From Gemmatimonadota bacterium (GTDB lineage: Bacteria; Gemmatimonadota; Gemmatimonadetes; JACCXV01; JAHWKZ01): 33,514 nt of DNA. How positions within the stretch are numbered: the stretch's first letter is position 1; each line of letters opens with the position of its first letter. This document shows, in pieces, positions 18,328-30,121 of the stretch. The position numbers and the translations under genes were made by a program. The stretch covers positions 1-33,514 of the forward strand of contig JBDHIC010000018.1 of NCBI GenBank assembly GCA_039589035.1, given 5' to 3'. The notes under the pieces were generated by a model that saw nothing but the letters and a program-made list of their open reading frames with translations, did not search any database and was not told the origin of the DNA.

Positions 18328-18364
18328 CACGAGCCCCCGGGCCTGATTGGTTCGGGGGTTCGTG
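18328..18364. terminator. GC-rich hairpin, likely terminator after the LVIVD gene
   Basis: CACGAGCCCCCGGGCC-TGATT-GGTTCGGGGGTTCGTG forms a 16-bp stem with G-U pairs; the U-tail is weak. Confidence 0.6.
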
Positions 18365-18403
18365 CGTTGTCGCCACCAACGTTGCTTCTTAGAATCGAGC
18401 CCT

Positions 18404-20830
18404 ATGCAGGAGTACGAAAAGCTCGGCGTCTTCTATCTGGGCCAGCTCTACGATCTGGGCGCGAAGGAGCGGTTGGATCCGCTGCTGCTCTACGATTCCC
18501 GCGATCTCGTCACGCATGCGGTGTGCGTAGGGATGACCGGGAGCGGCAAGACCGGCCTGTGCGTCGGGCTGCTCGAGGAAGCGGCGCTGGATGGGATACC
18601 GGCGATCGTCATCGATCCCAAGGGTGACCTCGGCAATCTGCTGCTTACGTTCCCAAAGCTTCGCGCCTCCGACTTTCGACCGTGGATCAACGAAGGAGAC
18701 GCCAGTCGGAAGGGTAAGACACCCGATGAGTACGCCGCCGCTCAGGCCCAGTTGTGGTCCAACGGGCTCGCCGGCTGGGGGCAGGATGGTGGGCGGATTC
18801 AGCGCTTGCGTGAAGCCGCTGATTTCACGATCTACACGCCGGGCAGCACCGCCGGCCGACCTTTGTCGATCCTCAAGTCGTTCGCCGCGCCCGACGCGTC
18901 GTTGCGCGACGACCCTGAACTGCTGGGCGACAAGATCGAGACCACCGTCACGGGGCTTCTGGGGTTGCTCGGCATCGAGGCCGACCCGATCCAGAGCCGC
19001 GAGCACATCCTGATCTCGACCATTCTGAAGGAGGCTTGGCAGGCCGGACGGAGCTTGGACTTGCCGGCGCTCATTCAAGCCATCCAGCAACCGCCGGTGA
19101 GCCGCATCGGCGTAATGGAGGTCGACTCGTTCTACCCCGCCAACGAGCGATACGAGCTGGCGCTCAAGCTGAACAACCTGATCGCTTCGCCTGGGTTCGA
19201 GAGCTGGCTGACCGGCGAGCCGCTAAGCATCGACAATCTCCTCTACACCGACGCGGGAAAACCCAGGGTCTCGATCGTTTCGATAGCGCACCTCAGCGAG
19301 CCCGAGCGGATGTTCTTTGTCTCGCTGCTGCTCAACGAAACGGTCGGGTGGATGCGCACCCAGTCGGGGACGACGAGCCTGCGAGCGTTGATCTATATGG
19401 ACGAGATCTTTGGCTACTTCCCACCGGTCGCCAACCCGCCGTCGAAGAAGCCGCTTCTGACGATGCTCAAGCAGGCCCGCGCATACGGTGTCGGTGTCGT
19501 GTTAGCAACGCAAAACCCGGTCGACCTCGACTACAAGGGGTTATCGAACACCGGCACGTGGTTTATCGGTCGTCTGCAGACCGAGCGTGACAAGGCTCGC
19601 GTGTTGGAAGGGTTGGAAGGTGCTTCGGCCGGTACCGGGGCGGCGTTCGACAAGAACGAGATGGACGAGACGCTGGCCGGACTAGGCAAACGAGTCTTCC
19701 TCATGAACGACGTTCATGACAGTGAACCGGCGGTGTTCCAAACTCGCTGGGTCATGTCGTACCTGCGGGGTCCGCTGACGCGCAATGAGATAAAGCGATT
19801 GATCGGTGACGTGGAGCCTGCCGTTGCTGAAATGAAGGCCCCCGCTCCCGCCGAGCCATCTGCACCGGCTGCGGCTTCGCGGCCCGTTCTGCCACCCAAA
19901 GTGCCCGAGCACTTCGTGCCCGTTCGGCAGCTCGCTCCCGCTGACGCCGAGCTCCATTACGATCCCACGCTGCTCTCTACAGCGCAGTACCGGTGCAGTA
20001 ACCGCAAGGCCGGGGTGAGCGTGACCGATGAGATCACCGTGCTCGTTCCGATGACCTCGGCGCCCATGGCGATCGATTGGAACGATGTCGCACGGGTCGA
20101 CATCGATGCCGGAGATCTCGGAACGGCACCTGAGGATGGCACCGTCTCATACGGCGAGGTGCCGGCAGCCGGCACCGACTCCAAGAGCTATACGGCGTGG
20201 AAGCGCGAGTGGAAGGATTGGGTCTATCGATCGCAGGCAATCAAGCTCTGGCACAGCCCGACGTTCAAGGACTACTCCGAGCCGGGGGAGAGCGAGCGCG
20301 ATTTTCGGATTCGGCTTCAGCAGCTGGCCCGCGAGCGGCGAGACGAAGAGAAGGAGAAGCTGACTAAGAAGTACACGCCGAAGATCGCGCGGATCGAAGA
20401 GCGAATCCGCAAGGCGCAACAGGCGGTCGCTCGCGAGGGAGAGCAATCGAAGCAACAAAAGCTCCAGACCGCGATCTCGGTTGGGACCACCGTGCTGGGC
20501 TCGATTCTGGGCCGAAAGACTTTGAGTCGCACCTCGCTCGGTCGGGCCACGACCGCCGCGCGTGGCGTAGGCCGCACGATGAAGGAGGCCGGCGACATCG
20601 GCCGTGCGAAGGAGACGGTCGCCGCCAAACAACAGGAGCTGGAAGAGCTCGACGCCGAATTCCGCGAAGAGATCGAAGCGCTCGAGGATAGGTTCGACCC
20701 GATGGCTGAGGAGCTCGAGGAGGTCGAAGTTCGGCCGCTCAAAAAAGATATCGCCGTCGGTCTAGTCAGCTTGGCCTGGGTTCCGTGCTGGGAGGACGCG
20801 CGGGGCAACCGCACCCCCGCATGGGAGTGA
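18404..20830 (+). CDS. HerA/FtsK-like (DUF87-type) ATPase with a long C-terminal coiled coil
   Basis: THAVCVGMTGSGKT Walker A, VIDPKGD, IYMDE Walker B and QARAYGVGVVLATQNP; E/K/R-rich helical tail. Confidence 0.88.
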   Translation: MQEYEKLGVFYLGQLYDLGAKERLDPLLLYDSRDLVTHAVCVGMTGSGKTGLCVGLLEEAALDGIPAIVIDPKGDLGNLLLTFPKLRASDFRPWINEGDASRKGKTPDEYAAAQAQLWSNGLAGWGQDGGRIQRLREAADFTIYTPGSTAGRPLSILKSFAAPDASLRDDPELLGDKIETTVTGLLGLLGIEADPIQSREHILISTILKEAWQAGRSLDLPALIQAIQQPPVSRIGVMEVDSFYPANERYELALKLNNLIASPGFESWLTGEPLSIDNLLYTDAGKPRVSIVSIAHLSEPERMFFVSLLLNETVGWMRTQSGTTSLRALIYMDEIFGYFPPVANPPSKKPLLTMLKQARAYGVGVVLATQNPVDLDYKGLSNTGTWFIGRLQTERDKARVLEGLEGASAGTGAAFDKNEMDETLAGLGKRVFLMNDVHDSEPAVFQTRWVMSYLRGPLTRNEIKRLIGDVEPAVAEMKAPAPAEPSAPAAASRPVLPPKVPEHFVPVRQLAPADAELHYDPTLLSTAQYRCSNRKAGVSVTDEITVLVPMTSAPMAIDWNDVARVDIDAGDLGTAPEDGTVSYGEVPAAGTDSKSYTAWKREWKDWVYRSQAIKLWHSPTFKDYSEPGESERDFRIRLQQLARERRDEEKEKLTKKYTPKIARIEERIRKAQQAVAREGEQSKQQKLQTAISVGTTVLGSILGRKTLSRTSLGRATTAARGVGRTMKEAGDIGRAKETVAAKQQELEELDAEFREEIEALEDRFDPMAEELEEVEVRPLKKDIAVGLVSLAWVPCWEDARGNRTPAWE

Positions 20831-22979: not shown

Positions 22980-23237
22980 ATGGTCAAGACCAAAGCCCAA
23001 AAGCAAAAGCATCAATCCAAGGCCCGACCCAAGGGGCCCGCCCCGAAGGCCGCCCGGGCTGGGACGGGAGCGCCAGCGGTTGCATTCTCGCGTATCAACG
23101 CGATCTACTTGGGTGTCGGCGCCGTCGCGATCGGACTCGGGTTCTACCTCCTGGCGCAAGGCAGCATGGTGCTAGCGCCGATCCTGTTGGTCCTCGGCTA
23201 CTGCGTGCTTCTGCCGATCGGAATCATCAAGAAGTAG
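22980..23237 (+). CDS. Small two-TM membrane protein (DUF3098-like)
   Basis: Basic N-terminus, then FSRINAIYLGVGAVAIGLGFYLL and [19 protein letters not shown]. Confidence 0.7.
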   Translation: MVKTKAQKQKHQSKARPKGPAPKAARAGTGAPAVAFSRINAIYLGVGAVAIGLGFYLLAQGSMVLAPILLVLGYCVLLPIGIIKK

Positions 23238-24522
23238 TTCCCGTTAGATCTTCTAGCGGGCGCGGTATCGCGTCGGTCCCACGCGCAAAGATCCCCTCCC
23301 AGTCGATCTTTCCGGTCAGTTGCATGAGCATGAAGAGCGTCAGAACGGCTCCGATCGTGACCGTCAGGCCGGTGTACCCCTCGAAGAAGAAGGCGTAGCT
23401 GAACAGCACCAGGAAGACGAGCTGTGCGCCGCCAGCGTAGAACAGCGCCCGTCGCAACCCGCACACCAGTCGCAGATAGCTCACGACCAACGTGATCGAT
23501 ACGAAGGACGCCAACACGAACGCGATGTTGATGTCCAAATGATCGACCAGGTACGCCAAGAGCAGATGAAACGCGAAGAACCCCGCCGACAGGAAGAAGT
23601 AGTGCATAGGGTGGAGGTTGATGTGCCTGAGTGCGCCCAGCATGACCAGGACGGTGACAAAGAACAGCAACGAAACCGGCGCGAAGAACGTGATACGCGC
23701 GGTCAGCGGGCCGGGGTTCAACCGGTTCGGCAGGTCGACCCCGATGTGCTTGCCGCTCACCAGATTGTCAAACCGCCAGGCGAGCTTCCACCCCTGGTCG
23801 CGTTGCACCTTGGCGGTTGGTGACAGTGTGCCGGGCGGGAAATCGAAATCGCCGAAGTCGGTCGTCATCGTAAGCTCGAAATCCCGAACCGTCGAAACAC
23901 CGCCAACCGCGAAGTAGTAATTCCAGGTGTCCAAGCCGCGGGAGGTGTACCCGATCTCGACGTCAGCTTCTGCGCCCGGCTCCATCGCGGTCAGGATCCA
24001 GACGCCACGATCGAGCTGATCGGCGGGTGGCGCCTCTTGGCCGTTGACGCGGAACGAAAAGTCGTCGTATACCGAATCCGACGACGGAAACGTGAAGGCG
24101 ACCTTGACCGGTCCGGCGACGTCTTCGGACACCGTGAATCGGTAGCTGCCACGAAACTGGACGGTGTACGTGTCGTACCAGAGAAGGCCCTTGCGGCGAT
24201 GTTCGAGCGCCAGATCGGCTCTTACGCGACTGCGGACCAACGGGATCGAGATCGTTTCGCGGATCGTCTTTTCGACCTGGCGCTTTGTGACGCGTCCTTC
24301 CTCATCGGTTTCGATCACCTCCTCGGTCACCTGGCGCGGCAACTGATGCGAAACCGTGGGGGCGGCTTGGCGCTGAGCACCGCCCCAGAGCTGGGTCACA
24401 GCTTGCGAGAGCGCATAATCGGAGCTGCCGGTTCGGTGTACGACCGACGCGCCTAGCGCAAACCAGGCGAGGGCGGTGCAACCAAAGATGAATGCGACGG
24501 CGAACAAACGGCGAACGGTCAA
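23227..24522 (-). CDS. CreD-family inner membrane protein
   Basis: N-terminal [20 protein letters not shown], a large soluble domain, then about six TMs including [26 protein letters not shown] and [23 protein letters not shown] and TTGA coupling to uppS. Confidence 0.8.
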
Positions 24523-25289
24523 CGGGTACCTCCTTGAGTCGCGTGAAGTGGCCTATGGGTTTGGTTATCGGTGGCTGCATTTGGCAATGCGCCAAACCGG
24601 CGCTCGCGAGCCTGGAAATCACCAACCGCCCCTTCCAAATCGGAACGCTGGAAGTCAGGCCACAGCACCGGCGTGAAGTGGAGCTCGGCGTAGGCGCACT
24701 CCCAGAGCAGGAAATCACTCAGCCGTTGCTCACCGCTGGTCCGAATCAGCAGGTCGACCGCGGGGACATCGGGAACCGAGTTGCTGGCAACCAGAAGCTC
24801 GCGCTCGAAATCGCGCTGCTGCGCATGACCGGCGGTCGGGAAGTGACGCACCGCCTCAGCGATCGCCCACCGGGACGAGTAATCGATCGCTATCCGTAGG
24901 AGCAGTCGAGAGCCTGTGGCGGTGGCTTTCTCGGCTCGCTTGATCGCGCGGAGAAGCTTGGGCTCGAGCCGATCGCGACGCCCGATGACGTTTAATCGGA
25001 CGCCATTCGCGCGAAAACGGTTGATCTCAGCGTCCAGATGACGCTCGAAGAGCTTCATCAGCGTTCGGACTTCTTCCGCCGGCCGGCGCCAGTTGTCGGC
25101 CGAAAAGGCATACAGCGTAAGGGTCCCGATGCCGAGCGACGGGGCAGATTCGACGACCCGCCGCACTGTGTCGACCCCGGCTAGATGTCCCGAGGTGCGG
25201 CCCAAGCCACGGCGCGCGGCCCAGCGGCCGTTACCATCCATGATCAGCGCGACGTGCAGTGCGGCAGGGTCATGCCAAGTACTTGGCAT
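24519..25289 (-). CDS. uppS: Cis-prenyltransferase (undecaprenyl/decaprenyl diphosphate synthase), probably a second copy
   Basis: Motifs [47 protein letters not shown] and RRFG. ATG 25289 is preferred over TTG 25307. Confidence 0.93.
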
Positions 25290-25297
25290 CACAAAGT
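25272..25297. promoter_or_regulatory. Palindrome and putative operator overlapping the uppS start
   Basis: Perfect 18-bp palindrome ATGCCAAGTACTTGGCAT (25272-25289). The overlapping 17-mer ACTTGGCATCACAAAGT (25281-25297) matches the promoter site at 26339-26355 at 14 of 17 positions. Confidence 0.7.
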
Positions 25298-25312
25298 TAA
25301 CAGACAAAAAAA

Positions 25313-25678
25313 CTACTCCTCTCGCATGGCGTGAATCAGCGTCTCCATATGATCGAGGTACCGCTCGAGAGCTCGGCGGCCTTTGGCGGTCAGTTGATAG
25401 ACCGTCCGTGGGACCCGTGCTTCGAACCGTTTACGGCAAGACACGTAGCCGGCATCCTCGAGCTTGCGCGCGTGAACGCTCAAGTTTCCGTCGCTGGTCT
25501 CCAACAGATCTCGAAGCTCGGTAAAGGACAATGACGGATTGACCGCCAGCGCGCTCAGGATTCCGAGACGTACGCGCTCGTAGACTAGCCGATCGAACTC
25601 GCCGGCCTTGGGATCCGCGAGATAGCCGGCGATGCCGCGCAATGTCTGTTGCTTGCGGCTTGCCTTCTTGTTTGCCAT
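25313..25678 (-). CDS. Winged helix-turn-helix transcriptional regulator (HTH_34-like)
   Basis: Motifs [45 protein letters not shown] and [15 protein letters not shown]. Confidence 0.9.
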
Positions 25679-25685
25679 CGCCCGC

Positions 25686-26300
25686 TTAGCCCCCATAACG
25701 CCTCACGATCAACGCACCAAAGACGAGGTGCAAGCCACCGAAACCGATCGCCAGCAGCGGGTTCGCCCAACTGGCTGGTGCTGCCAATGCGATGAGACCC
25801 AAGACCATGAACGCGGCACCCATGATCGGCACCGATCGGACCGAGAACATGCCGCCGGTAACCACGCCAACACCGTATAGCAGCAACCATAACCCGGGAA
25901 TCGGGTCCACGATTTCAGCCCGATAGAGTGCGGCGGTCAGCGCGATGGCGGCGATCACCGGTGGCGCAAGTCCGAGAAGGAAGCGTCGACCGACACCACG
26001 CGACAACCGTTCACCCTGGTGCCTGGCCTTCTGGTGCATGAAAACGCCCCCGATCGTCGCCGCCAGTAGCGCATCCAGAACCCAGAGCGGGAGCCACTGG
26101 TCGGCGAGACCGGGGGAAGAGACGAGTGCGGCCGTTGCCAGAGCCGAGACACCCATTACGATCCCACCCCAACCGGGCACAGAGGTGAAAGCGCGCGACG
26201 ATTCCATCGTCTCGCGGATGTACTCGAGGTTGTCGATCGCCCTCGTGTGGAGGGCGACCGGCTCATTGGGCTCAGACCGCAGAGGCTCGGATGCCGACAT
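25686..26300 (-). CDS. Multi-pass membrane protein (about six TMs), partner of the wHTH regulator
   Basis: N-terminal helix ALHTRAIDNLEYIRETME, WLLLYG and C-terminal GFGGLHLVFG. The ATG at 26300 lies 7 nt after a -10 box. Confidence 0.82.
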   Translation of the reverse strand: MSASEPLRSEPNEPVALHTRAIDNLEYIRETMESSRAFTSVPGWGGIVMGVSALATAALVSSPGLADQWLPLWVLDALLAATIGGVFMHQKARHQGERLSRGVGRRFLLGLAPPVIAAIALTAALYRAEIVDPIPGLWLLLYGVGVVTGGMFSVRSVPIMGAAFMVLGLIALAAPASWANPLLAIGFGGLHLVFGALIVRRYGG

Positions 26301-26361
26301 GACCAGTAGCCTACCAGAATAATACTTTATTGTCAAGAACTTGATGATGCAAAGTGACTTT
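26301..26361 (-). promoter_or_regulatory. Sigma70 promoter (probably leaderless) with ACTT/AAGT operator repeats
   Basis: Minus strand: TTGACA (26336-26331), 17-nt spacer, TAGGCT (26313-26308), 7 nt, ATG, with no RBS. ACTTTGCATCATCAAGT (26355-26339) and further AAAGT/ACTTT half-sites flank the -35 box. Confidence 0.78.
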
Positions 26362-26547
26362 CTGTCCTCAGCGGACTGGGTCCTGGCCGACTCGATGCGG
26401 TTCGAAACTTGCAATTTGGGGACAATCAGATCCGACTAGGAACCGAGAAATCGTGCCCCGTGCCTGAGGATCAACGAGATTACATCGCATGGTCCGTTGC
26501 ACCCAGAGCGGAATACTAATCCTCGGACAAGGGGTTGCGTACACTAA

Positions 26548-27716
26548 ATGAAGACCAAGTATTCGATAATCGGGCTCGGCAAACTAGGCGCTAGCATGGC
26601 CGCTGGTATCGCCAGCCGTGGGTTTGAAGTGATCGGTGTAGACGTGAACGAGAATGCGGTGCGCTTGCTGAACGACGGCCACGCGCCGGCGCAGGAGACC
26701 GGGCTAGATGACCTGGTTGCAGCGAACAAAGAGCGGCTCAAGGGGACGATGAGCCATCGCGAGGCGGTACTTGGGTCGAACGTCTCGTTCGTGATCGTCC
26801 CCACGCCGAGCAATCAGGAGGGCATGACGAGCACCGTATTGCCGGGTGCGACACGCTATGGACTGCTGCCAGTACTGGAAGAAGCATCGGGGAAGAAGTG
26901 CGGTCCAGACTTTGGATTGTGCTACACGCCGGAGTTCATTGCCTTGGGAAGCGTGATCAGGGACTTCCTCAATCCGGATTTTACGCTGTTGGGGCAATTC
27001 GATGATCGCTGTGGAGAGAGGCTCGAAAAGTGCTTCGATGAGATCCTAGAGAGTCCGGCACCGTGCATGCGCATGAGTCTCGAGAATGCTGAACTGACAA
27101 AGCTGTGCGTCAATACTTACGTGACGACAAAGATCACGTTCGCCAACATGCTGGCCGAGATCTGCGAGATGATCCCGGGAGGCAACGTCGATGTGGTTTC
27201 GGACGCGCTGGGGCTCGACAAGCGAATCGGCCGGCGGTATCTCACCGGGGCACTGAGTCGAAACTGGCGGGTAAGTTCAACCCCGGAGACACCGTCGCCA
27301 TTCTGGGTCTGTCGTACAAGCCGTGGTCTCATATCGTAGAGGAGTCCCAGGCTGTTTATTTGGCCAAAGAGCTGTCGTCTGCAGGCGCACGCGTGGTTGG
27401 CTACGACCCGTTAGCGAACGACATGGCCCGTTCCGAGCTTCGCGACAAGGCGGTAATCGTTGATTCGATCGAAGACTGCGTTGCCGATGCCGACTGCATT
27501 CTGGTGTGCAATCCAGATCCAGAATTCAAGGCTCTGACGCCTGAGATGGCGCTGGGCGATAAGGGATCGGTCACGGTGGTCGACTTCTGGCGTTTCCTGA
27601 GATCGTCGCTCGAGGGTCATCCCGGTATCGATTACCGGGCGTACGGGACCAGCATCGACGACGATGCCAACGCCGAGGCGATGAAGGAGCTGTGGGGCGA
27701 GGGCGGCAACGCCTAG
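26548..27716 (+). pseudogene. UDP-glucose/GDP-mannose dehydrogenase family gene with two internal deletions, the second frameshifting
   Basis: IIGLGKLG, IVPTPS, STVLPG, PEFIALG, AELTKL and DKRIG are in one frame; AILGLSYKP...EESQ, YDP and VVDFWR are in another frame from about 27249. PTPS is only 6 residues from STVLPG, and the catalytic GxGGxCxPxD motif is absent. Confidence 0.88.
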
Positions 27717-27724
27717 GTGCGGTT

Positions 27725-28591
27725 TTGAGCCAGCAAGAGAGCCCCATGATCACGATCGTAACGCCCACCTACAACAGCGTTCGTACGGTGCGGGATACGA
27801 TCGAGAGTGTGCTGACGCAGGACTACCCAAACCTCGAGCATATCGTGATGGATGGCGGGTCCACAGACGGTACCCTCGATATTTTGGCAGACTATCCGCA
27901 TCTCACGTGGGAATCCGAGAAGGACGAGGGACACTACCACGCAATGCAAAAGGGCGCCGAGCTGGCGACCGGGGACGTGCTCGCGATCCTCAACTCGGAC
28001 GATTGTTACCGACCTGGAACACTTCACAAGGTCGCCGCTGCCTTTGATGCCCACCCCGAGTGGGACGCTCTTTTTGGTGACATTCGGTTCGTCGATTCGG
28101 ACGGAAATGAGATCTATCGACGGGAAGAAGCCAAGTACGACTATGATGTTCTCCGTTTCGGGGTCAATATCGTGAGCGACCAGACGCTGTTCTATCGACA
28201 AGAGACGTTTCATCGGGTCGGTGGATTGCGGTACGAGAAGTTCCGCAACTGTTGCGATTACGATATGGTCCTGCGCTTGGGCAAAAACGGCTTCAGGGTC
28301 GGTCACGTCAACGCAATCTTCACTAACTACCGAGTTCATGAGTTCGGACAGACTGCCGATAAGCGAATCGCCGAGAACATGCGCAGAGAAGTGAGACTTA
28401 TAAGAGATGAACATGGAGTGCCGCACGGGTTTCCGTATTACATCCTGATGGTTAGCCACAAGATCAAGCGGCAGTTGCAGAAGCTCTTCCTGCGGGGCAA
28501 GGTCGATCTCGTTTCGGGTCGCTGGAAACTCCGAAAGCACATGCGAGACCAAACGACGTTCTCTTCCAACGTGGGTCTTGACGAGCTGTAG
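27725..28591 (+). CDS. Family 2 glycosyltransferase (WcaE-like)
   Basis: Motifs ITIVTPTYNS, IESVLTQDYP, DGGSTDGT, SEKDEG, LNSDD and DYD. Start is TTG 27725 or ATG 27746. Confidence 0.92.
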   Translation: MSQQESPMITIVTPTYNSVRTVRDTIESVLTQDYPNLEHIVMDGGSTDGTLDILADYPHLTWESEKDEGHYHAMQKGAELATGDVLAILNSDDCYRPGTLHKVAAAFDAHPEWDALFGDIRFVDSDGNEIYRREEAKYDYDVLRFGVNIVSDQTLFYRQETFHRVGGLRYEKFRNCCDYDMVLRLGKNGFRVGHVNAIFTNYRVHEFGQTADKRIAENMRREVRLIRDEHGVPHGFPYYILMVSHKIKRQLQKLFLRGKVDLVSGRWKLRKHMRDQTTFSSNVGLDEL

Positions 28592-29194: not shown

Positions 29195-30121
29195 ATGAGT
29201 AGCCAGCACATGGGACACGGGATGGCAGGGCATGCCGCGGTCAATGCGCGAGCGTTGAGAGTCTCCGCGTGGCTTACCGGGGTCTACTTCGTCGTCGAGC
29301 TGCTGATCGGCCTGTATACCGGGTCGGTGGCCGTTATTTCCGACGCCATGCACACGTTCTCGGCCGTTGGAGGAGTGGTGCTGGCGATCGTCGCGGCTCG
29401 GATCGCCAGACGCCCGGCCGACGAGCGCCGCACGTTCGGATCGTTCCGGGCGGAGATCATCGGTGCGCTCCTGAACGGCGTCTTTCTGTTCGTGATGGCG
29501 ATTGTCGTACTCGTAATGGGATACCTGCGCCTACGGGCGCCGATACACCTGCCAACCACTCCGATGCTCTTCGCTGCCGCGGGCGGCATCATCACGGAGT
29601 TGATCTCGATCCGACTCCTCTACGCGGGCCAGAAAGGGGATCTCAACATCAAGGGGGCTTTCTGGCACATCGTCCAGACGTTCGTGGGCAGTATTCTGAT
29701 CATCGTGGCCGCGCTCGTGATCCGGCTGACCGGGTTTCTGTCGATCGACCCGCTTCTCGGTATGGCGTTCGGTCTTGTGCTCCTGTATGCGTCCTGGGGG
29801 ATCATGCGTGACGCCGTAGGAATCCTCATGGAAGGCGTGCCTCCTGATCTCGAGGTGCGGAGCGTAGTCGATCGGCTCAAAGAGCTGAGCAAAGTCGACG
29901 ACGTTCATCACGTCCACGCGTGGATCCTGACGTCCAACAAGACGGTTTTCTCAGCGCACCTCAGGACCGACGACATCGCTGCGGCTCCGGATGTGCTCGA
30001 TGCCGCCCACGATCTGTTGCGACGGGAGTTCGGATTCCATTTGTCCACGCTGCAGGTAGAGACGAGATGCCTTGACGAAGATCACGCGAGGGATCTCGAC
30101 TTTCTCAGACGGGGGGAGTGA
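29195..30121 (+). CDS. Cation diffusion facilitator (CzcD/ZitB-like) transporter
   Basis: His-containing N-terminus, SDAMH, RTFGSFRAEIIGALLNG, DLNIKGAFWH, ILMEGVP, VHHVHAW and TLQVE. Confidence 0.92.
   Translation: MSSQHMGHGMAGHAAVNARALRVSAWLTGVYFVVELLIGLYTGSVAVISDAMHTFSAVGGVVLAIVAARIARRPADERRTFGSFRAEIIGALLNGVFLFVMAIVVLVMGYLRLRAPIHLPTTPMLFAAAGGIITELISIRLLYAGQKGDLNIKGAFWHIVQTFVGSILIIVAALVIRLTGFLSIDPLLGMAFGLVLLYASWGIMRDAVGILMEGVPPDLEVRSVVDRLKELSKVDDVHHVHAWILTSNKTVFSAHLRTDDIAAAPDVLDAAHDLLRREFGFHLSTLQVETRCLDEDHARDLDFLRRGE

Follow-up and report, generated by a model that had tools for sequence, protein, structure and literature searches.

A candidate membrane-controlled regulon for polyprenyl-phosphate carrier supply in Gemmatimonadota and Acidobacteriota

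The operon, its operator and its proteins

The 33,514-nucleotide window analysed here (positions 1 to 33,514 of contig JBDHIC010000018.1, assembly GCA_039589035.1, Gemmatimonadota bacterium) carries a four-gene operon that encodes a small membrane protein, a winged helix-turn-helix (wHTH) regulator, a second cis-prenyltransferase (UppS2) and a CreD-family inner-membrane protein. Sequence comparison indicates that the conserved unit is the three-gene operon of membrane protein, wHTH regulator and uppS2 with its operator, in both Gemmatimonadota and Acidobacteriota, and that the CreD-like protein is one of several optional cargoes. The genes and regulatory elements of the window are listed below.

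25686 to 26300, minus strand: membrane protein, 204 amino acids (aa); start placed at ATG 26300, longest frame 25686 to 26414
25313 to 25696, minus strand: wHTH regulator, 127 aa, PF13601 (HTH_34), with a basic N-terminal tail; alternative start ATG 25678
24519 to 25289, minus strand: UppS2, second cis-prenyltransferase, 256 aa, PF01255; open reading frame (ORF) 24519 to 25307, probable start ATG 25289
23227 to 24522, minus strand: CreD-family inner-membrane protein, 431 aa, PF06123; TTG start
26331 to 26356, minus strand: operator O1, CACTTTGCATCATCAAGTTCTTGACA; its final six bases, TTGACA (26336 to 26331), are the -35 element of the operon promoter
26308 to 26313, minus strand: -10 element TAGGCT, read from the sequence, 17 nucleotides (nt) past the -35 and 7 nt ahead of ATG 26300
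25273 to 25298, minus strand: operator O2, AACTTTGTGATGCCAAGTACTTGGCA, at the wHTH/uppS2 junction, with the start codon of uppS2 (25289 to 25287) inside it

All four ORFs lie on the minus strand and fill 23227 to 26414, as the original prediction of four co-oriented genes had it. Two of the junctions it described are exact, namely the 23-nt gap between the wHTH stop at 25313 and the uppS2 ATG at 25289, and the TTGA overlap in which the creD TTG (24522 to 24520) shares bases with the uppS2 TGA (24521 to 24519); AAGGAGG sits 6 nt ahead of the creD start. The third, a 7-nt gap between the membrane-protein and wHTH genes, holds if the wHTH gene starts at ATG 25678 and is lost with ATG 25696. We prefer ATG 25696 because GAGG lies just upstream and because its 11-nt overlap with the TAA stop of the membrane gene resembles that of homologues, the gene maps of most homologous loci showing an overlap of 8-11 nt at this junction. 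A generic promoter/terminator scan gave no convincing terminator past creD.

The operator-like repeats that had been noticed at this locus are well beyond chance. The window holds two matches to ACTTTGNNNNNNCAAGTNCTTGRCA, at 25273-25297 and 26331-26355, whereas 100 shuffles gave an expectation of 0.01 and none of them held two or more matches. A 26-mer matrix was built from 23 sites, 20 of them from other genera and 3 from the same-genus loci L012 and L013, and used to scan the whole assembly (294 contigs, 90% complete, 2.3 Mb). Only two strong sites were found, both inside the module: O2 is the best site in the genome at 35.0 bits and O1 scores 31.0 bits, followed by scores of 16.6 (the same palindrome on the opposite strand) and 14.1. 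No other regulator is conserved in the unit, and the HTH_34 protein is for this reason the predicted ligand of the 26-bp operator, whose consensus is GACTTTGCATTGCAAAGTACTTGACA.

The position of the operator relative to the promoter is also conserved. Of 15 loci from two phyla whose regions upstream of the membrane-protein gene were aligned, 13 have a CTTTGy-N4-CAAAGTACTTGACA motif there, with TAnnnT 17-18 nt past it and an ATG after another 7-9 nt. In the window TAGGCT stands only 7 nt before ATG 26300, and the spacing therefore implies an operon mRNA that would be leaderless or nearly so. Among the 68 sites of at least 23 bits collected over all loci, 32 have TAnnnT at 16-19 nt, and in 29 of these 32 an ATG or GTG follows 5-10 nt past it. 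O2 has no TAnnnT at 16-19 nt downstream; junction operators of its kind occur in L012, L013, L102, L113, L115 and L125. The claim of one strong promoter thus stands in part: the -35 is a perfect TTGACA and its geometry recurs in other genomes, but a generic scan missed it because the -10, TAGGCT, matches at only 3 of 6 positions. The operon promoter is accordingly a prediction supported by conservation in other genomes and not by the generic scan.

The regulator is readily classified. It matches PF13601 at E 8.7e-28 (96.7 bits against a cut-off of 27) over residues 42-121, covering profile positions 1-80 of 80, and its homologues were aligned as A3. No Pfam or NCBIfam family matches the membrane protein. 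Its alignment, A2, holds 13 sequences with a mean column identity of 68%, and its AlphaFold2 (AF2) model (predicted local distance difference test, pLDDT, 81.8) has a conserved N-terminal helix at residues 17-37, predicted to be cytoplasmic, followed by six transmembrane helices with short loops. Foldseek returned nothing for this model at E<=0.001, VIA-align gave generic helical bundles only (best Z 10.6, a designed six-helix barrel), and the nearest clusters in the ESM Atlas were without a Pfam family in 30 of 30 cases. The family is nonetheless large: of 1.84 billion cluster representatives, 2,920 match at E<=0.001 and 1,747 at E<=1e-10. Its best 150 profile matches are 131-300 aa long, and, as weak evidence against fused forms, matches in the 358-2000 aa size range included no fusion to a wHTH domain. 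We propose that the membrane protein is an intramembrane sensor or anti-repressor and, given its short loops, that any signal would be sensed inside the lipid bilayer or at its cytoplasmic surface.

UppS2 is a full-length member of its family and is distinct from the housekeeping enzyme. It matches PF01255 at E 2.7e-76 (256.4 bits against 27; profile positions 1-219 of 219), scores 250.6 bits on TIGR00055 (cut-off 109.55) and reaches 338 bits on NF011412 (PRK14839), above the equivalog cut-off of 334, with no match to NF011405. The genome holds two PF01255 genes. The other, on contig C226 between frr and cdsA and followed by dxr, scores 243.4 bits on NF011412 and passes NF011405 (333.4 against 304), so that a separate housekeeping uppS exists and the gene in the window indeed lies outside the usual frr/cdsA/dxr context. 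UppS2 aligns with E. coli UppS (1jp3) over residues 10-235 at E 5.6e-64 and keeps the motifs DGNGRW, LTLYAFSxxNWxRP, RTSGExRLSxFLLW, AYAEL and RERRFG, in agreement with the earlier description of intact catalytic motifs; we take the conserved residues to have their individual substrate-binding and catalytic roles here as well. The residues aligned to E. coli A69 and L137, positions that we assume help to set chain length, are unchanged.

Phylogenies of the two types of enzyme agree with these profile matches. In a 19-sequence tree, 14 module-linked copies are split by a 100/100 branch from 5 housekeeping copies of the same genomes, and in a 39-row tree the 8 housekeeping copies form one side of a fully supported branch. 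Near the conserved motifs, all 14 module-linked copies carry D65, R132, D192 and E197, where 4-5 of the 5 housekeeping copies carry E, N, N and Q. UppS2 therefore resembles housekeeping UppS of the frr-uppS-cdsA-dxr type in its full-length PF01255 domain and conserved stretches, and differs from it in forming a separate clade with its own substitutions, a dedicated operator and another gene context. Within that clade, the window's copy groups with the four-gene Acidobacteriota copies and not with other Gemmatimonadota trios (Shimodaira-Hasegawa-like approximate likelihood ratio test, 84-89), which suggests lateral exchange of the four-gene form.

The CreD-like protein is a more distant relative of its namesake. 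Its PF06123 match (E 1.4e-17, 64.1 bits against a cut-off of 23) is above the gathering threshold, is strong only over residues 258-409 and is weak in the N-terminal part; on the equivalog NF008712 it scores 65.8 bits and fails the cut-off of 275. Alignment with hhalign to E. coli CreD gave a probability of 93.9% (E 1.6e-7, 22% identity over 354 columns), and E. coli CreD matches our CreD-like profile, A1, across its periplasmic and membrane parts. On these comparisons the protein is a distant full-length homologue of E. coli CreD, not its orthologue. The AF2 model (pLDDT 73.5) has an N-terminal transmembrane helix, a beta-rich domain at residues 50-263 and five C-terminal transmembrane helices; a fold search with it gave weak matches only (4g2a, TM 0.31; pentameric channels, TM ~0.15), and a sequence search of solved structures gave nothing below E 0.03. 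The CreBC two-component system that normally controls CreD had been described as absent, and this is borne out: the window's contig has no match to the E. coli CreC histidine kinase, and the ten matches elsewhere in the genome are of the generic kinase core (best E 7.9e-21).

Conserved core and variable cargo across genomes

The CreD-like family has at least 7,977 homologues, of which the few that are named are called 'inner membrane CreD family protein' and come from Acidobacteriota. We collected 80 loci with profile A1, searched them by tblastn with the window proteins and mapped their genes, choosing ORFs by G+C content at third codon positions (GC3 weighting) in this GC-rich DNA. The window's four-gene order is found in 5 of the 80 loci, 2 of the same genus and 3 of Thermoanaerobaculia or 'Multivoradales'. 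The membrane protein and wHTH regulator, hereafter the pair, stand upstream of creD without uppS in 11 loci, mostly Pyrinomonadaceae, and a lone creD has an operator site of at least 23 bits 30-140 nt upstream in 15 further loci, so that 31 of the 80 are tied to the pair. The remaining 49 have neither an adjacent pair nor an operator; 8 of them, mostly Vicinamibacteria, have creD followed by uppS2. In total uppS2 adjoins creD in 13 of 80 loci, in two gene orders and with or without the pair.

The three-gene core is far more widely distributed than the CreD-like protein in Gemmatimonadota. The membrane protein is present in 103 of 151 sampled genomes and 59 of 81 genera, and in at least 74 of the 103 positive genomes an NF011412 match scoring 262 bits or more lies no further than ~1.5 kb from the membrane gene; these tallies take in the unpublished genomes G107 (both counts) and G141 (NF011412 count), on which no named locus relies. 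The 48 genomes without the membrane protein have no NF011412 match above 260 bits among the matches listed. In the 16 Gemmatimonadota loci read, membrane protein, wHTH regulator and uppS2 are adjacent in 13, the operator, with like promoter spacing before the membrane-protein gene, is present in 15 and a second, junction site is present in 3. The CreD-like protein was found in 2 of the 151 genomes by both profile A1 and PF06123, both of the window's genus. Eight of the 80 CreD-like loci are labelled Gemmatimonadota, and the protein must therefore also occur in parts of the phylum outside the 151-genome sample.

These results bear on the original prediction, which depended on conservation of the cluster elsewhere and on another uppS in the genome; both were found. 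Its four-gene module is right in that the gene set recurs in other genomes, and needs correction in that the conserved core is the trio, with the CreD-like protein optional. That the genes form one regulated unit is upheld, and the membrane sensor, the repressor, the induction and the role in envelope stress that it also proposed are conjectural. The three-gene core is probably old and widespread, and the form with creD, shared with Thermoanaerobaculia-type Acidobacteriota, has probably been exchanged laterally.

Where the trio and creD are unlinked, the operator often connects them. Five genomes were picked for an operator before a lone creD, and every one of them has a membrane-protein gene at another place, with wHTH and uppS2 genes after it (57-65% identity); in 4 of these genomes the membrane-protein gene has a site of more than 18 bits upstream. 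A sample that was not chosen by operator came from 151 Acidobacteriota genomes, whose tallies take in the unpublished G243, G218 and G339 (again, no named locus relies on these). Here the membrane protein is found in 49 genomes, a strong CreD-like match in 33 and both in 13, with the genes adjacent in 4 of the 13 and unlinked in 9. Among the genomes with the membrane protein and an unlinked creD, 8 were examined, and in 5 of them creD is preceded by a site of 27.8 bits or more, against 0 of 12 CreD-like genomes without the membrane protein (maximum 11.7 bits); the hypergeometric probability is 56/15504 = 0.004, ignoring kinship of the genomes.

Loci in which creD and uppS2 stand together without the pair appear to follow another arrangement. 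A pair hidden elsewhere in such genomes was considered and rejected, the membrane protein being present in 0 of 5. Three of these five (L019, L026 and L039) carry a CadC/ToxR-like protein of ~473 aa with an N-terminal Trans_reg_C domain, which stands beside creD in 10 of the 80 loci, co-oriented in 7 and opposite in 3 (L014, L019, L022, L026-L028, L038, L039, L043 and L044; for example L044:4465-5886), and may be an alternative creD regulator. Conversely, in five genomes with the pair and creD and no adjacent uppS2, four have a single housekeeping-type uppS and one has no match. As a side observation, L031 and L048 are contigs labelled 'uncultured Bifidobacteriaceae' that carry an acidobacterial-type creD, and L031 also has a uppS2 nested among Vicinamibacteria copies; these bins are probably mislabelled or mixed.

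Other genes occupy or share the position of creD. A membrane protein of ~500 aa follows uppS2 in 9 of the 16 Gemmatimonadota loci (L111, L113-L116, L118 and L124-L126; for example L126:5671-7221), taking the place of the CreD-like protein, and both members tested by Pfam contain DUF4153 (PF13687), for which we found no literature on function. The window's genome has its own DUF4153 gene on another contig, without the operator. Loci of the Pyrinomonadaceae type have two genes between wHTH and creD, a membrane-anchored protein of ~228 aa followed by a flavoprotein. The best models for the flavoprotein are of the geranylgeranyl reductase family (TIGR02032, 133.7 bits, E 1e-38, below the cut-off of 158.8). 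The ~228-aa protein lies between wHTH and this reductase-like gene in L060, L080, L083, L084 and L087 (for example L087:2225-2911) and has an invariant EK(H/Y)FCE(I/L)DCHLAYS stretch; a 37%-identical relative lies downstream of the Gemmatimonadota trio in L115.

Operator-like sites also occur outside the operon. A degenerate operator pattern gave 8 matches in five complete genomes, against 3 for a reversed control (0-1 per genome). One match precedes an unlinked uppS2 in G114, with operator and leaderless geometry, and two lie in G185, far from its sensor operon (L127 and L132, 30.9 bits each), before idi and before a Poly_export/SLBB (Wza-like) outer-membrane export gene. The idi product, isopentenyl-diphosphate isomerase, scores 180.9 bits on NF002995 against a cut-off of 127. 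The predicted regulon thus includes carrier-supply genes, with uppS2 adjacent in 13 of 16 loci and unlinked uppS2 and idi after operator sites.

The distribution of creD allows that it is a chance passenger after uppS2, with no functional tie to UppS2 or polyprenyl lipids. Its presence in so few Gemmatimonadota genomes, its near independence of the pair in Acidobacteriota and the 49 loci with neither pair nor operator would all fit. We consider this very improbable, because creD adjoins uppS2 in two gene orders with or without the pair, 15 further lone creD genes have the operator just upstream, the operator before creD tracks the sensor (5 of 8 against 0 of 12), and in the window the creD start codon shares bases with the uppS2 stop and is preceded by an AAGGAGG of its own. 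The suggestion that CreD works on or with polyprenyl phosphates is instead strengthened by three separate associations, although the tie stays circumstantial: creD beside uppS2 with or without the pair, unlinked creD with the trio's operator, and creD beside a geranylgeranyl-reductase-like gene, which mirrors creD and cbrA of E. coli.

The cargoes could alternatively point to a dedicated product, in which UppS2 makes the chain for one glycan or lipid (an exopolysaccharide, a capsule, protein glycosylation or a saturated dolichol-like carrier), the CreD-like, DUF4153 or reductase protein processes that product, and the regulator answers a developmental or nutritional cue and not carrier homeostasis. 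The separate UppS2 clade with substitutions near conserved motifs is in keeping with this, as are the UDP-glucose/GDP-mannose dehydrogenase and GT2 glycosyltransferase genes divergently upstream in the window and the G185 site before the Poly_export/SLBB gene, and a geranylgeranyl-reductase-like cargo would suit a saturated carrier. The flanks, however, vary by locus, and among the 16 loci no glycan gene is seen repeatedly next to the trio. The Wza-like site is a single case, measured against a reversed-pattern control of 0-1 matches per genome, and the unchanged residues at the A69 and L137 positions, whose chain-length role we presume, also speak for an ordinary product. We therefore regard a dedicated product as unlikely.

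A proposed regulon for carrier supply

Sequence comparison gives a conserved operator, its restriction to the module in this genome, a co-inherited trio, and the operator before unlinked uppS2 and creD genes. From these we propose an autorepressed, membrane-controlled regulon for extra polyprenyl-phosphate carrier supply, to which we assign a probability of roughly 0.55. The HTH_34 regulator would bind both copies of the 26-bp operator, the one over the operon -35 and the one that spans the first codon of uppS2. Acting as a repressor, it would silence the operon that encodes it from the promoter and, in addition, prevent read-through or translation of uppS2 and creD; repression is suggested because the operator overlaps a consensus -35 and O2 covers a start codon. 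The co-translated six-helix membrane protein would control the regulator, most likely holding it at the membrane on an intramembrane cue, an arrangement suggested by the translational coupling of the two genes and by their being kept together whatever the cargo. The cue may be the state of the free polyprenyl-phosphate carrier pool; this is the least certain step, and we propose it because the cargo is isoprenoid-centred and because Bacillus subtilis SigM provides a precedent. Derepression would give more UppS2 and more polyprenyl diphosphate, and in the window's genus it would also raise a CreD-family protein that may act on or beside polyprenyl-linked intermediates.

Several observations weigh against this reading. 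The mechanism as a whole draws on comparative genomics, and the sampled genomes are related, so that the counts overstate independence. In Acidobacteriota the 13 co-occurrences of CreD-like and membrane protein compare with ~10.7 expected if they were independent, and the CreD-like protein is therefore not an obligate partner. Three of the 8 unlinked creD genes in sensor-positive genomes lack the operator, and the 5 positives include L141, whose contig is that of L035, a contributor to the matrix. The contact between membrane protein and regulator is conjectural, and neither Foldseek nor VIA-align found a fold relative of the membrane protein. A generic sigma-70 scan did not flag the minus-strand operon promoter, and repressor polarity is deduced only from operator position and the consensus -35. 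Finally, sites before creD and at the wHTH/uppS2 junction are mostly without a recognisable -10, so the regulator could activate there.

This last point leads to a different division of roles, in which the wHTH protein, as an activator or dual regulator, brings polymerase to creD and uppS2 or, alternatively, the membrane protein is a fourth working part (for example in polyprenyl phosphate handling) and the wHTH protein senses the signal itself. The creD and junction operators usually have a weakened -35-like hexamer (TTTACA, TTCACA or TTGGCA) with no TAnnnT at 16-19 nt, as in activator-dependent promoters, and the centre of the main palindrome lies ~46 bp ahead of the start; the membrane protein, almost wholly embedded and with short loops, also looks like a small transporter or enzyme. 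The operon promoter, by contrast, should fire unaided, since most loci combine an exact TTGACA with a conserved TAnnnT 17-18 nt further on. O2, inside the transcription unit and over a start codon, suits a roadblock and not activation, and retention of the membrane gene with wHTH where the cargo differs fits a regulatory partner. Such a division is possible in our view, though doubtful.

The carrier-supply reading can be set beside three known systems. One is the type of BlaI/BlaR1 and MecI/MecR1, which presumably likewise comprise an autoregulated operon with a small winged-helix repressor and a membrane protein thought to relieve repression. Unlike BlaR1 and MecR1, the membrane protein here is modelled as a six-helix bundle with short loops, without an extracellular sensor or peptidase domain and with no HExxH motif in alignment A2.

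In B. subtilis, SigM with YhdL-YhdK serves undecaprenyl phosphate (UndP) homeostasis, release of the sigma factor raising genes of carrier supply or availability, and analogous UndP pathways are expected elsewhere by the authors of that work, according to its accessible text (PMC11081497). The module resembles this system in that a membrane partner is proposed to hold a transcription factor inactive and in that the regulon holds uppS2 and, in one genome, idi. It differs in replacing the ECF sigma factor by a winged-helix protein of the HTH_34 type whose predicted operator overlaps the -35, in having a membrane protein of no described family, in taking a whole second uppS as its main target and in being known from sequence comparison.

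The third system is the E. coli Cre regulon, in which CreBC controls creD, cbrA, cbrB and cbrC. In both cases a CreD-family protein is co-regulated with a flavoprotein of the geranylgeranyl reductase family: cbrA, annotated 'colicin M resistance protein', passes NF008519 and has TIGR02032 as its next-best model (114.8 bits), so that CbrA and the acidobacterial cargo gene are both sub-threshold relatives of TIGR02032, and the two proteins share 23% identity (E 4e-12). From the E. coli creD/cbrA parallel and the acidobacterial pairing of creD with a reductase-like gene it follows that a CreD-family protein travels with an isoprenoid-modifying enzyme in unrelated regulatory settings. The window differs in that its creD is under a wHTH operator without a two-component system, its partner gene is uppS2 and not a reductase, and its CreD-like protein is 22% identical to E. 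coli CreD and fails NF008712. A study by Helbig et al. (2012) is said to concern CbrA, on the theme of the Cre regulon and colicin tolerance.

The Cre comparison also raises the idea of a defence against carrier-targeting antibiotics or bacteriocins, such as bacitracin-like compounds, lipid II or UndP binders and colicin M-like enzymes, with the membrane protein detecting the drug or a trapped intermediate and UppS2 and the CreD-like protein restoring or protecting the carrier. In the accessible text of one study, creD, cbrA, cbrB and cbrC are among the E. coli genes most induced by colicin M, a lipid II hydrolase, and the Cre regulon is linked to colicin M and E2 tolerance (PMC3599342); the strong induction of creD together with the geranylgeranyl-reductase-like cbrA is suggestive here. 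The hosts, moreover, are soil and sediment bacteria going by their record titles, and the regulon logic is the same as for carrier supply. Against this, no resistance determinant was seen beside the trio in the loci read, where an undecaprenyl pyrophosphate phosphatase and a BceAB-type sensor-transporter were looked for, and defence is a special case of carrier supply, inseparable from it by sequence alone. As a specific purpose we hold it to be quite unlikely. Separately, MacB/FtsX genes lie downstream of creD near some Pyrinomonadaceae loci.

B. subtilis SigM is so far the one case in which the setting of lipid-carrier levels has been worked out in detail, and the module is a candidate for such control in two abundant, poorly studied soil and sediment phyla, bringing with it a well-delimited operator, a regulon of few genes and a new family of membrane proteins with ~2,900 sequence clusters. 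It also offers a handle on the molecular role of CreD, a question since the cet/cre studies, with the CreD-like protein repeatedly wired to polyprenyl-chain enzymes and DUF4153 tied to the same regulon. Loss of creD leads to division and envelope defects in Stenotrophomonas maltophilia, as the accessible text of that report describes (PMC4689548). It is tempting to speculate further that an undescribed family of intramembrane sensors measures free polyprenyl phosphate and sequesters an HTH_34 repressor, and that the interchangeable CreD, DUF4153 and CbrA-like cargoes are all polyprenyl-phosphate handlers, a view we offer tentatively and with more doubt than belief. On that view Gemmatimonadota and Acidobacteriota would have a carrier homeostat made of parts unrelated to SigM and its anti-sigma proteins, and the orphan E. 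coli families of these cargoes would gain a first biochemical context. As the original prediction also supposed, no published description of the pair, the operator or the regulon was found in a search that lay outside subscription journals and the supplements of the cited papers.

Neighbouring genes

Upstream of the operon and divergent from it, a UDP-glucose/GDP-mannose dehydrogenase is encoded on the plus strand at 26548-27716 in two overlapping frames, of which 26548-27339 holds the N-terminal and central domains and 27105-27716 the C-terminal one; the split is a frameshift, a pseudogene or an assembly error. The GT2 glycosyltransferase gene follows at 27692-28591 (plus strand). Beyond it, a plus-strand ORF of 137 aa at 28778-29191 matches only positions 915-1019 of the 1021-position AcrB/RND profile (about the last 105) and is probably the remnant of an RND gene, and a CDF cation-efflux gene comes directly after it at 29195-30121.

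On the other side, a membrane-protein ORF of 85 aa (22980-23237, plus strand) points towards creD and shares 11 nt with the 3' end of that gene; tblastn matched it only in the same-genus loci L012 and L013 among the 80 loci. Further away, upstream of purN and purH, an 827-aa protein encoded at 18347-20830 (plus strand) shows weak matches to HerA/DUF87 ATPases.

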